Below are positions 23,855 to 55,292 of a stretch of DNA of 64,000 nt, one piece after another. The number at the start of each line of letters is the position of its first letter. The stretch's first letter is position 1. The notes under the pieces were generated by a model that was not told where the DNA came from, did no database searches, and saw only the letters and a program-made list of their open reading frames with translations. The DNA is taken from contig JAJDVX010000015.1 of assembly GCA_022825895.1 (NCBI GenBank), positions 45,121 to 109,120 on the forward strand, in the 5' to 3' direction. The translations under genes were made by a program, and so were the position numbers. This DNA comes from Chloroflexota bacterium (lineage in GTDB: Bacteria > Chloroflexota > UBA11872).

Positions 23855-23969
23855 GCTGTCAGGCTCCCCCCGAAGAGCAGATGCAATTTCACCGACAGCC
23901 TAACGCTCACGGCATCAGCCTTCATGCAGGTCGAAAGGGGTCGCAATACGCGACCGGCGCCGCAGGACG

Positions 23970-26238: not shown

Positions 26239-26955
26239 TCATGGACCGACCCGTGATGGCAGACATTCCAGGCGATCAAGCCATGCATCGAAATGTGGAC
26301 ATGCGACGCGGATGGCGTTCAAGCCGATGGCCTGCGCCGCTTGCGTGCCTGAGAGGGGCTTCTGGTAGCCGGCGACGAGGCGTTCAATGCGTTTAGAGGG
26401 CGCAGTCTGGGGTGAGTCGTCGATTTCTTCCGGGTTGTCGAACTGGTCCCGAATTGCCTGAAGGTCGGAGGCAAGGTTGGGCCGCCCAATCGTGTCAGCG
26501 AATCGGTGGCAGTCGCTGAAGAGCATGGCTTCAAACTCGTGCATCATCAAGTACGGAACGAACCGATCAGGATTGAAGCTGCGGCCCATAAGTTGGCGGA
26601 CGTCGTCCAGCAACTCAGCCTCGACAGTTCTCGCCCGTTCGGGCAATGGTCGCTGCTGCGCTTGAGTCCGGCCGGGCCATCCTGATGGCAGGCCGTAGTA
26701 GTCCACCATGGTCGTAACGAAGCATCCAGGATCGCCCTGTAGGTTGTTCAAGATTTCCTTCCGCACAGTCGACCAGGGCTTTACACCGCCACGACGGGTA
26801 CGTTGGCGGGCATTTCCTAGCAGACGAGCGCTGATGTCGGTAAAGCTGTGGCCATATAGGTGCGGCGCCAGCACCTGGTTGACAAAGGACTCTTCGGTCT
26901 GACCCTCGACGTGGACGCGCAGTCGGATCGCAGGTCGCCTTCCACGTCTACTCAT
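26239..26955 (-). CDS. DUF4276-like protein (putative TOPRIM-like nuclease partner of upstream ATPase)
   Basis: ATG at 26953-26955 overlaps the ATPase stop by 8 nt (ATGAGTAG). N-terminal IRLRVHVEGQTEESF (TOPRIM-like Glu), later acidic TTMVDYYG and HEFEAMLFSD. GC lower than genome. Confidence 0.6.
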   Translation of the reverse strand: MSRRGRRPAIRLRVHVEGQTEESFVNQVLAPHLYGHSFTDISARLLGNARQRTRRGGVKPWSTVRKEILNNLQGDPGCFVTTMVDYYGLPSGWPGRTQAQQRPLPERARTVEAELLDDVRQLMGRSFNPDRFVPYLMMHEFEAMLFSDCHRFADTIGRPNLASDLQAIRDQFDNPEEIDDSPQTAPSKRIERLVAGYQKPLSGTQAAQAIGLNAIRVACPHFDAWLDRLECLPSRVGP

Positions 26956-28129
26956 GGGCGGGACGACCGCCCAATTCGTTCTTCTCCCAGAGCTGGCCCA
27001 GGCTGTAGTCCTCCAGCCACTCCGCGAGTCTCTCCGCGTCGAGCCGAGAGAATTGCGTTTCCCCATTTACCCGGTCAGCCACCAGCACGTCGTCGGGGTC
27101 GAAATGATCCAGCAGGATTGGGGACTGAGTGGCGAGAATGATCTGCGTGTCGACCGACGCCTGTTTCACCAGCGAGGCCAGCAGAGTGATGGCGAACGGA
27201 TGCAGGCCAAGTTCTGGCTCGTCTAGAAGGATTACAGACGGTCGCAGGTGGACCGGCTGCGAGAGAAGGGTCGCCAAGGCGACGAAACGCAGAGTTCCGT
27301 CGGAGAAGGCCGCGGCGTCGAAATAGGCGTCGGACCCTCGATGTCGCCATTCCAGACGGATCTTGTCCTGGTTCAGCGCGAGCGGCTTGAGCTGGAAGTC
27401 CTCAAAGAAGGGCGCGGCCAATCGGACGGCGCCTTGGATTTGGGCGTACTCGTTCCGGTTCTTGAGCTGCAGCCGGAACAGGAAGGCCGCGAGGTTGGCA
27501 CCATTGGGTCGCAGAAACTGGTTGTCATGCAGATCGACAGTCCGCTTGATCGGCGAACTGGAGCCGGTGTCGTGAAAGTGGTAGATGCGACAGTTCTCAA
27601 GTTGGTCATTCACGTTCTGAACAGGCGTGCTGACCGACGGATCGCTGATTCCAGCTTCAAGATTCTGGCCTAGAGGCAACATTCCTTGCTTGGGACCGAT
27701 CTCGAATAGAGTTCTGGGACTCTCGCCGGACCTTGACATTAAGCTCACGGTGCTCGGCTCGGATCTCGCTTGATCCCAAAAGGAGACCGTCTCTTTCCTC
27801 GGGTAGAGTCCGTCGGCATCTGTCGGAGCCAAAACAATCTCGTACTCACTTTGCTCTTGGCCGGAATCACCCCTAAATGCAACGTGAATCTCTAATCTCG
27901 CCGTCACCTTCGCCCCGAAGTGCAGAGCCCGATCGGCCCCGCCTATGCGACTTACGTAGTCTTGAAGCCTCTCCGCACGGATTGCCTGAAGAAACCCGAA
28001 CACTTCGATGAAGTTGGACTTGCCCGACCCGTTGGCGCCGATGAGCACGTTGATAGGACGCAGGCACAGCTTCTCAAGATGCCTAATGCTCTTGAATCCT
28101 TGGACGCTGATGTGTTCGATTGCTGGCAT
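26948..28129 (-). CDS. ABC/AAA_21-type ATPase (SMC-like, OLD/abortive-infection ATPase family)
   Basis: Walker A GANGSGKSN, signature/Walker B region ILLDEPELGLHP, D-loop; 393 aa. GC ~55% vs ~67% background. Confidence 0.8.
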   Translation of the reverse strand: MPAIEHISVQGFKSIRHLEKLCLRPINVLIGANGSGKSNFIEVFGFLQAIRAERLQDYVSRIGGADRALHFGAKVTARLEIHVAFRGDSGQEQSEYEIVLAPTDADGLYPRKETVSFWDQARSEPSTVSLMSRSGESPRTLFEIGPKQGMLPLGQNLEAGISDPSVSTPVQNVNDQLENCRIYHFHDTGSSSPIKRTVDLHDNQFLRPNGANLAAFLFRLQLKNRNEYAQIQGAVRLAAPFFEDFQLKPLALNQDKIRLEWRHRGSDAYFDAAAFSDGTLRFVALATLLSQPVHLRPSVILLDEPELGLHPFAITLLASLVKQASVDTQIILATQSPILLDHFDPDDVLVADRVNGETQFSRLDAERLAEWLEDYSLGQLWEKNELGGRPAHE

Positions 28130-29702: not shown

Positions 29703-30965
29703 ATGCCTTTTCGTCTTCAGGGTCTCTGGCGCCACCCCAACTTCCTGAAGCTGTGGGTTGGCGGAACGGTCTCAGCGTTCGGCTCGCAGATCACCTTCCT
29801 GGCGCTACCGCTCACGGCGGTGCTGGTGCTGGATGCCTCACCGCTGCAGATGGGCGTCCTGGCGGCCATCGGCGGCCTCCCGTCGCTTGCGTTTGGAGTT
29901 GGCGTGGGCGTTTGGGTCGACCGGCTCAGAAAGCGCCGGGTAATGATCGTTGCCGACTACGGTCGCGCGCTGCTGCTGCTCTCTGTCCCGATCGCCGCCT
30001 GGCTGCAGGTGCTGCGGATCGAACACTTGTACGTCGTTGCCCTTGGCACCGGCACGCTGGGGATGTTCTTCGGCGTAGCCAATCGGTCAATTCTCCCGTC
30101 GCTGGTCTCGCGGGAGCAGTTGGTGGAAGCCAACAGCAAGCTTGCGATCGGCACGTCGGCTTCGCAGGTCGCCGGCCCGGGCGTTGCGGGGGTGCTGATC
30201 CACATCGTCACGGCGCCTGTAGCCCTGGTCGTCGACGCCGTGACCTTCGTGATTTCAGCGTTGGCGCTGCGAGGAATTCGCCACCAGGAGGCTGAACCGG
30301 CAACGTCTGTAACCGGCGACAGCATCCTGAAGCAGGCTCGCGAAGGCCTGGCCGTGGTCGGCCGAAACCGGATTCTGCTTTCCATCGCCATCGCCGTCGG
30401 GGGAATCGCCGTTTTCAACGCGATGTTCGAGGCCGTATGGCTGCTTTACGTCAACAAGCAGCTCAACGTCGAGCCGCTGGCCTTTGGCTTCCTCTTCGCG
30501 GTCAGCAGTGTGGGGTTCATGGTCGGGGCCTTCGTCGCGGAACGGCTGATCCGCTGGTTGGGCCCCGGTCCGGCCATGATCGTTGCGGTCGTCATCGCGG
30601 CGCTGAGCGACCTGGTTACCCCTCTCGCCGGAGGGCCGCTCGCAGCCGTCGTCGTGTTGCTTACCACCTCCATGTTTCTGTTCGGCATCGGCGCCACGGT
30701 GTACGGGGTTTGCCAGGGCAGCCTGCGGCAGGCGAGCACACCGCTTCGGCTTCAGGGCCGCATGAACGGCATCATGAATACCCTGGAGATTGGGCTGGTC
30801 CCGCTCGGTGCACTAGTTGGTGGGGCCTTAGCTGAAGTCGTTGGCATGCGGCCAATGCTCTTTGTCGCCGCCGGGCTTGAACTGGCCGTCGCTCTCTGGC
30901 TGTTCATATCGCCGATTCGGTCGCTGCGCGAATTGCCGGAACCTGAGGATTCCGGCGCCGCGTAG
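29703..30965 (+). CDS. MFS transporter (enterobactin-exporter EntS-like)
   Basis: 12 predicted TM segments; MFS motif GVWVDRLRKRRVM. Confidence 0.8.
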   Translation: MPFRLQGLWRHPNFLKLWVGGTVSAFGSQITFLALPLTAVLVLDASPLQMGVLAAIGGLPSLAFGVGVGVWVDRLRKRRVMIVADYGRALLLLSVPIAAWLQVLRIEHLYVVALGTGTLGMFFGVANRSILPSLVSREQLVEANSKLAIGTSASQVAGPGVAGVLIHIVTAPVALVVDAVTFVISALALRGIRHQEAEPATSVTGDSILKQAREGLAVVGRNRILLSIAIAVGGIAVFNAMFEAVWLLYVNKQLNVEPLAFGFLFAVSSVGFMVGAFVAERLIRWLGPGPAMIVAVVIAALSDLVTPLAGGPLAAVVVLLTTSMFLFGIGATVYGVCQGSLRQASTPLRLQGRMNGIMNTLEIGLVPLGALVGGALAEVVGMRPMLFVAAGLELAVALWLFISPIRSLRELPEPEDSGAA

Positions 30966-31029: not shown

Positions 31030-31176
31030 GGGTTGCTAACGCGATTGATTCGATCCGCGTCAGCGCGCGTGCCAAAAAACTCGGTGCGTGGCGCCTGACT
31101 GGCGGACCAGACACGACCCCCACACGAAGACCGAAGCATCCTGCTCGAGGTCAGCCGGGTCGAAAGGGACGAAAGT

Positions 31177-32802
<1,626 letters not shown>

Positions 32803-32824
32803 GTCCACGACTCGGAACGCTCAA

Positions 32825-55126: not shown

Positions 55127-55214
55127 GGTGCCGAAGGTCGGGATCGAACCGACACGAGGGATGAACCTCACTGGTTTTTGAGACCAGCGCGTCTACCAGT
55201 TCCGCCACTTCGGC
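55127..55214 (-). tRNA. tRNA-Leu (anticodon CAA), type II long variable arm
   Basis: Minus strand: GCCGAAGTGGCGGAACTGGTAGACGCGCTGGTCTCAAAAACCAGTGAGGTTCATCCCTCGTGTCGGTTCGATCCCGACCTTCGGCACC. Confidence 0.85.
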
Positions 55215-55216
55215 CT

Positions 55217-55292
55217 TGGCAGGAGTGGAGGGACTCGAACCCCCGACCTACGGTTTTGGAGACCGTTGCTCTTCCAGCTGAGCTACACTCCT
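55217..55292 (-). tRNA. tRNA-Trp (anticodon CCA), CCA encoded
   Basis: Minus strand: AGGAGTGTAGCTCAGCTGGAAGAGCAACGGTCTCCAAAACCGTAGGTCGGGGGTTCGAGTCCCTCCACTCCTGCCA. 2 nt from tRNA-Leu. Confidence 0.85.

Follow-up and report, generated by a model that had tools for sequence, protein, structure and literature searches.

The window analysed here is a 64,000-nt stretch of a Chloroflexota bacterium genome (contig JAJDVX010000015.1, positions 45,121 to 109,120 of the forward strand). Its minus strand carries two adjacent genes, an ATPase gene (gene 1, 26948..28129) and a DUF4276 gene (gene 2, 26239..26955), that on the strength of profile matches are a bona fide member of HEC-01, a split OLD-like ATPase plus Toprim class and candidate anti-phage system. 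The most likely function, to which we give a probability of about 0.6, is that of a chromosomal HEC-01 copy encoding an ATPase-gated nuclease used in defence. Gene 1 matched the PADLOC profile HEC-01A (PDLC04175) with an E value of 4.3e-133 and 441.8 bits, its residues 3-390 aligning with positions 5-362 of 363, and gene 2 matched HEC-01B (PDLC04188) with 8.5e-75 and 249.4 bits (residues 10-232 along positions 13-226 of 230). HEC-01A profiles accounted for 10 of the 25 PADLOC matches listed for gene 1, while the five PADLOC matches of gene 2 were all HEC-01B profiles. The adjacency expected of HEC-01 genes was also found, both being on one strand with an 8-nt overlap. An earlier sequence-only reading of the window had raised the possibility of an unnamed variant, an idea that does not hold when both proteins match HEC-01 over their full length (442 and 249 bits). 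This is an already catalogued system that a standard PADLOC run would name, and no new kind of system.

HEC-01 (Hma-embedded candidate 01; PADLOC-DB v2; Payne et al. 2024, bioRxiv 10.1101/2024.01.29.577857) was defined from loci inside Hma (helicase-methylase-ATPase) systems in which an ABC ATPase is accompanied by a TOPRIM-like protein whose metal site is conserved, and the predicted folds of both window proteins agree with that description. The window pair differs in its surroundings, with metabolic neighbours instead of an adjoining methylase or helicase. Embedding in Hma, which is not seen at this locus, is probably no requirement for HEC-01.

Gene 1 (HEC-01A) encodes a 393-aa ABC ATPase of the SMC/Rad50-head type without a coiled coil, and gene 2 (HEC-01B) a 238-aa DUF4276 protein with a predicted OLD-like Toprim and a helical domain. 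The 8-nt overlap between them (ATGAGTAG, 26948..26955, minus strand) contains the TAG stop of gene 1 and the start codon of gene 2, an internal ATG at 26955 within a 275-aa open reading frame (ORF) that ends at 26239. This start was preferred because it agrees with the N termini of homologues and with the HEC-01B profile (residues 10-232). Both the overlap and the length of the second protein had been read correctly by eye, with the strand left unstated; both genes lie on the minus strand. Among 85 related loci, with start codons picked by a heuristic, the commonest junctions were a 4-nt overlap (25 loci), an 8-nt overlap (14 loci) or a gap of a few nucleotides. Such short overlaps are consistent with translational coupling of the two genes.

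The DUF4276 layout suggested for gene 2 in the sequence-only reading was borne out, with Pfam DUF4276 matching at 4.5e-50 over all 192 profile positions, DUF4435 unmatched, and the motifs VHVEGQTEE, DYYG and HEFE all present. The AlphaFold model of gene 2 had a predicted local distance difference test score (pLDDT) of 84 and a predicted template modelling score of 0.83, and it contains the four-stranded parallel sheet between helices that is expected of a Toprim. Foldseek placed the C-terminal regions of two class 2 OLD proteins at the top (probabilities of 0.99 and 0.98), with GajA and AriB next. At the level of sequence, a profile built from gene 2 relatives had no match among PDB sequences even at E ≤ 10. 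Thus, the TOPRIM-type nuclease proposed at the outset stood as far as the fold is concerned but not with regard to the canonical DxD motif, the third-position Asp of which was found in 0 of 330 relatives.

Residue conservation in gene 2 was assessed over these 330 distinct relatives, which span 35-100% identity. E17 and E21 of VEGQTEE (26893..26907, minus strand) were retained in 328 and 327 of them, respectively, and in the model a strand at residues 10-16 is followed by a helix at 19-34, E17 being the conserved Toprim glutamate directly after strand 1. The usual DxD site at the end of strand 3 (residues 78-85) is occupied by D85-Y86-Y87 (26695..26703, minus strand), with D85 kept in 327 relatives and position 87 a Tyr in 315 and a Phe in 8. 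A probable second metal site, H139-E140-F141-E142 (26530..26541, minus strand), is located at the start of the helical part, where E140 and E142 were found in 329 and 328 relatives. Along similar lines, the helical C-terminal half carries a near-invariant lysine, K199 (26359..26361, minus strand; Lys in 323 of 330). The structurally characterised BpOLD has E400, E404, D455, T506/E508 and K562, binds two Mg ions and uses K562 catalytically (PMC6755086). The spacing of E17 and E21 equals that of E400 and E404, the placement of HEFE resembles T506-x-E508, and K199 is a possible counterpart of K562, equivalences that we infer from motif order and secondary structure and not from three-dimensional superposition. 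On this basis, E17, E21, D85, E140, E142 and K199 appear to be ordered like the two-metal site of BpOLD.

Gene 1 matched Pfam AAA_21 at 2.4e-32, with weaker SMC_N and AAA_15 matches, in agreement with the AAA_21-type ATPase that had been recognised from GANGSGKSN (residues 31-39) and LLDEPELGLHP (residues 301-311). The Walker A/P-loop proper, GANGSGKS (residues 31-38; 28016..28039, minus strand), and the Walker B plus D-loop, ILLDEPELGLHP (residues 300-311; 27197..27232, minus strand), were both read from the sequence. In 30 homologues, G31, N33, G34, G36, K37 and S38 of the former and D303, E304, P305, E306, L307, G308, L309, H310 and P311 of the latter were invariant, as was a signature-like SDG motif among gene 1 relatives. 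The protein therefore has the Walker A, the Walker B with its catalytic Glu, the signature-like motif and the head fold of an ABC ATPase. Judging from ABC ATPase topology, the position of the H-loop histidine would correspond to T334-Q335-S336 (27122..27130, minus strand), which comes after the strand at residues 329-333 of the model and is invariant both in 85 and in 30 homologues. The gene 1 model was closest to SMC and Rad50 heads (score of 21.1) and to the defence ATPases PtuA (19.0) and AriA (18.5), followed by the retron Eco8 OLD (16.6), RecF (15.1), Thermus OLD (14.5) and GajA (14.1), and comparison with PDB sequences gave weak SMC, OLD and PtuA matches.

One part of gene 1 behaves differently from the rest. 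The insertion at approximately residues 86-178 (27596..27874, minus strand) was poorly conserved across the 85 homologues, with an identity between syntenic relatives of 20-46% compared to mostly 73-100% in the remaining blocks (down to 50-56% in L010 and L011). Divergence of the ATPase is concentrated at approximately residues 90-180, its fastest-evolving part, and the insertion is partly disordered in the model (pLDDT of <50 at residues 135-154). This variability makes the insertion a candidate sensor region and, we suggest, the likely sensor of the system.

In order to place the pair among its relatives, species-representative genomes were scanned, and the best 80 of 520 confirmed loci were considered. 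The closest of these were Chloroflexota metagenome-assembled genomes at 89% identity, and matches at 56-66% identity came from many phyla. Many of the related taxa, e.g., Poribacteria, Caldilineaceae, SAR202 and Latescibacterota, are sponge associated. With 90%-identity clusters as the search set and E ≤ 0.001 as the threshold, gene 2 alone had 5759 relatives, which collapse into 3631 clusters when grouped at 50% identity. The related loci, 86 in number and from more than 10 phyla, all had an ATPase gene immediately upstream of the DUF4276 gene on the same strand, and the pairwise identities of the two proteins were correlated (r = 0.70); the two genes are always inherited together. Along with this strict linkage, there is evidence of movement between contexts. 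The GC content of the pair was below that of its flanks in 82 of 84 loci (mean difference of 6 points), and 13 plasmid records contain an annotated DUF4276 plus AAA ATPase pair. In the window, the pair region has a GC content of 58.6% versus a mean of 65.7% (standard deviation of 2.3 points among equally long windows) and is the lowest-GC stretch of its length in the 64 kb; the two genes have 57.9% and 59.6%, and their GC at third codon positions is 0.70 and 0.66 versus 0.74 to 0.88 in neighbouring genes. The low GC content claimed in the sequence-only reading was thus real, but its size (ca. 55% versus ca. 67%) had been overstated. The pair has no paralogues within the window.

About one related locus in six adjoins restriction-modification (R-M) genes. 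In one of them (L029), the pair was confirmed to lie within a type I R-M operon, with hsdS on one side and hsdR on the other, and clustering suggested three to four further loci of this kind (L039, L069, L072 and possibly L065). In 8 of the 75 more distant loci, an N6_N4 methylase of ca. 1000 aa is directly upstream of the pair, and other loci adjoin HEC-06, IetAS or UvrD-type genes. A Poribacteria locus (L013:146-8808) has the pair after a 1059-aa N6_N4 methylase and two WD40-repeat proteins (829 and 923 aa), with a UvrD-like helicase, the third called gene past the pair, ca. 1 kb downstream, an unusual composition for an island.

DUF4276 has been assigned to the Toprim superfamily, and a homologue, Mad4, is part of the methylation-associated defence system (MADS) of Pseudomonas aeruginosa, in which deletions of mad3 and mad4 weaken defence (both genes are needed) and loss of the methylase gene is tolerated only when mad2 or mad3 is deleted too. 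Mad3-Mad4 are like the window pair in that an AAA_15/21-type ABC ATPase is followed by a DUF4276 protein. Assignment to MADS was rejected, given that NCBIfam MAD3 reached 101.9 bits on gene 1 against a cut-off of 420 and gene 2 matched neither Mad4 nor any other NCBIfam family. In PADLOC, too, mad3 matched gene 1 far less strongly than HEC-01A or over only a part of it. No MAD6-8 or methylase gene adjoins the pair, the rest of the window not having been searched for them. MADS discriminates by methylation, whereas nothing indicates methylation-based discrimination at this locus.

The class 2 OLD proteins (C-terminal regions of BpOLD and XccOLD; PDB 6NK8 and 6NJV) are fused single chains, whereas here two genes are present; their sequence identity to gene 2 is 14-17%, and the second Asp of their DxD is a Tyr in gene 2. 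A fused OLD was discarded, since there are two ORFs with a stop and a separate start and the PADLOC Old match to gene 1 was partial (1.6e-17); gene 2 had no Toprim_OLD match in Pfam. As a separate observation, in one 497-aa ORF from a 7.7-kb metagenome contig (P0280), a HEC-01A-type ATPase runs in frame into the N-terminal ca. 100 residues of a DUF4276 protein, which may be an OLD-like fused architecture or else a frameshift or assembly artefact.

In Gabija, GajA is a fused ATPase-Toprim that works with the UvrD-like helicase GajB, while PtuA pairs with an HNH nuclease. Gabija was discarded because the pair is split in two genes and no helicase adjoins it in the window, and the Septu and retron PtuA systems differ in their HNH nuclease partner, none of which adjoins the pair here. 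PARIS is often phage or satellite borne, in contrast to gene 2, which has no viral homologues in the collections searched. Although the AriA profile covers part of gene 1, PARIS was rejected since its AriB belongs to DUF4435, a family that, like AriB itself, gave no match to gene 2 at E ≤ 0.1. The paper describing PARIS groups AbiL and MADS3-4 among the ABC ATPase plus TOPRIM systems and lists RloB (PF13707) alongside DUF4276, and AbiLii is probably a RloB-type Toprim. AbiL (AbiLi plus AbiLii) is similar as a two-gene ATPase plus Toprim-type abortive-infection system but was rejected as well, the AbiLi match to gene 1 (1.7e-21) being far below that of HEC-01A and gene 2 matching neither AbiLii nor RloB. 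Of the split-OLD, AbiL-like or PARIS-like label given in the sequence-only reading, the broad OLD-like ATPase plus Toprim group was retained, and membership in AbiL or PARIS was not.

Compared with syntenic relatives, both genes had dN/dS (nonsynonymous to synonymous substitution rate) ratios of 0.08 to 0.22, i.e., purifying selection, indicating that they are functional, while the dN of the pair was ca. 1.5 to 2 times that of flanking genes. The dS values were mosaic. In one relative (L002, 8001-8717), the DUF4276 gene had a dS of 0.12 versus 0.35 to 0.7 in its ATPase gene and flanks, and in another (L007, 8827-10714), the whole module had 0.35 to 0.39 versus 0.65 to 0.9 in the flanks, which suggests recombinational exchange of HEC-01 alleles between lineages of the clade. 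Three sister contigs (L088-L090), with GroEL 93-98% and LarE 74-76% identical to those of the window, run JAMM-LarE-GFO-AKR without the pair, the lactonase gene and the solute-binding protein gene (e.g., L088:6001-7996). Therefore, the segment with these genes is a presence/absence polymorphism. When the empty LarE-GFO spacer was aligned with the window spacers, similarity ended with LarE, and insertion could not be distinguished from deletion. No integrase was found within ca. 8 kb on either side, judging from the genes of a syntenic relative, in line with what had been claimed at first, and the window has no meaningful direct or inverted flanking repeats around the pair. The pair has long been resident in one Chloroflexota lineage, and the module is mobile between contexts.

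The family assignment, the folds, the conserved residues, the strict linkage of the two genes, their mobility between contexts and the purifying selection on them are what the analysis shows, whereas the complex, its trigger, its substrate and the defence phenotype are inferred as follows. By analogy with PARIS, OLD and Gabija, an oligomer of the ATPase would keep the nuclease inactive until a phage-derived cue, sensed via the variable insertion, alters the ATP-bound state. The nuclease would then be released or activated and cut nucleic acid, with DNA (as in OLD and GajA) or tRNA/RNA (as in AriB) as candidate targets, and phage replication would be halted, perhaps with the loss of the infected cell.

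Several lines of evidence weigh against this defence function. [quoted passage not shown] Regarding the proteins, gene 2 has only the first Asp of the Toprim DxD, the motif being D-[YFL]-Y and the second Asp absent throughout the subfamily, and gene 1 has the Gln of TQS where the H-loop histidine would be expected. With the second Asp missing and a Gln at the H-loop, canonical nuclease and ATPase activities cannot be assumed, although the Gln has a precedent in the aligned Pyrococcus SMC, which is also without a His at this position. The likeness to the BpOLD metal site carries the limit of its derivation given above. Most related loci, that of the window included, are outside recognisable defence islands and often have housekeeping neighbours. 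Over a dS of ca. 0.4 to 1.3, the pair has stayed in a single chromosomal position under purifying selection, a retention that also fits a non-defence cellular role. Finally, no relative was detected in IMG/VR with two family-specific peptide patterns, in 50,697 phage records by tblastn, or, for gene 2, among PHROG families, and a viral origin was discarded on these grounds.

A different role in the control or upkeep of mobile DNA is the first alternative to consider, and we regard it as a rather unlikely one. The module would act on mobile DNA generally, e.g., in plasmid exclusion, or serve its own maintenance through addiction, as a toxin-antitoxin-like unit with a nuclease toxin and the ATPase as its keeper. 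The plasmid-borne pairs, the absence of phage protection in the test by Payne et al., and the exchange between lineages visible in the mosaic dS and in the low GC of 82 of the 84 loci are all compatible with such a role, as is the ATPase fold, which recurs in Wadjet JetC and Rad50/SbcC, proteins that work on plasmids or DNA ends. Against this stand the one HEC-01 that did protect against phage and the position of the pair in R-M operons, like classical phage-defence cargo. Moreover, there is no sign of toxicity or of a labile, antitoxin-like partner, and the window pair is stably chromosomal, with mobile-element genes not found nearby.

A second alternative is a domesticated accessory function in nucleic acid maintenance or repair, retained for a cellular purpose in this lineage, in which the SMC/Rad50/RecF-like ATPase would work with its Toprim partner as in RecF-RecR or Rad50-Mre11. 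We consider this improbable, since the distribution is patchy, with the pair missing from sister contigs of otherwise identical gene order, and its GC is nearly always below that of the host (82 of 84 loci); it is also found within R-M operons and next to further defence genes, has a hypervariable insertion in the ATPase, and matches profiles that were built on defence-embedded genes.

A functional role of the pair in one operon with its metabolic neighbours (JAMM, LarE, lactonase and solute-binding protein) might be supposed from the shared strand, the spacers of 80 and 76 nt, the lack of promoter- or terminator-like sites on that strand (the promoter scan being limited to sigma-70 consensus sites) and the gene order kept in a close clade (L001-L011 and L087). 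The comparative data effectively rule this out, because LarE, JAMM and lactonase genes are near the pair in none of 75 more distant loci, the sister contigs have the JAMM-LarE-GFO-AKR order without it, and its composition is unlike that of its neighbours.

The metabolic and unrelated nature of these neighbours had been called correctly from the letters: LarE matched TIGR00268 with 322 bits (cut-off of 150), the JAMM protein is a Prok-JAB, and the lactonase is an SGL protein (PF08450); a solute-binding protein gene is also among the neighbours, all on the same strand as the pair. The sequence-only reading had also named conservation with these neighbours in relatives as evidence against its proposal. 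Such conservation was seen only in the close clade, where the order is JAMM-LarE-pair-lactonase, and in neither the sister contigs nor any of the 75 other loci, none of which shares the window flank. The consensus scan found no sigma-70-like promoter on the strand of the pair. A single terminator-like site was seen, at the junction of genes 1 and 2 but on the plus strand, opposite the genes.

Other features of the neighbourhood also vary between close relatives. The 115-nt spacer between the solute-binding protein gene and a GFO/IDH oxidoreductase gene (23855-23969), empty in the window, contains differing cargo in L002 (11414-12170), in L003, L004 and L006 (11333-12852) and in L005 (11110-12636), namely, an NTase_sub_bind plus NTP_transf_2 pair, a HigB toxin with a 407-aa helix-turn-helix protein, or an RVT_1 reverse transcriptase; it looks like a small variable hotspot ca. 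3 kb from the pair. Similarly, the major facilitator superfamily (MFS) transporter gene beside JAMM (29703-30965) is missing in some relatives (L003:4609-5199 and L004), its place being occupied in L003 by an HNH endonuclease gene. A 582-aa ORF on the minus strand (31060-32808), antisense to GroEL (31177-32802, plus strand) and longer than the GroEL gene, is a typical high-GC shadow ORF and no gene. The tRNA-Leu(CAA) and tRNA-Trp(CCA) genes are in tandem, 2 nt apart (55127-55292, minus strand), and the window has four further tRNA genes, among which tRNA-Gln (16194) comes closest to the pair, at a distance of ca. 10 kb.

Although HEC-01 pairs are very common, only two tests of their activity are on record, and these conflict. 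The locus described here extends the known set by a chromosomal member, not embedded in Hma, of an uncultured Chloroflexota lineage. Of modest interest in it are the D-Y-Y Toprim motif, the Gln that takes the H-loop position, an effector that is strictly conserved across phyla, and the thin experimental record of the family. The comparative data (linkage, hypervariable insertion, noncanonical Toprim and presence/absence) could help in choosing representatives and designing mutants for experiments. A speculative proposal, which we hold at low probability, is that the HEC-01B/DUF4276 clade is a mechanistically distinct Toprim variant, in which a single Asp and a Tyr replace the DxD within an OLD-like E-x3-E/ExE/K set, and that its partner with the H-loop Gln is maybe a slow ATP-binding switch. 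If so, the long residence at one Chloroflexota site could point beyond classical abortive infection, with tRNA or RNA targeting or, where symbionts live in dense communities, the control of other mobile DNA as possible wider roles.

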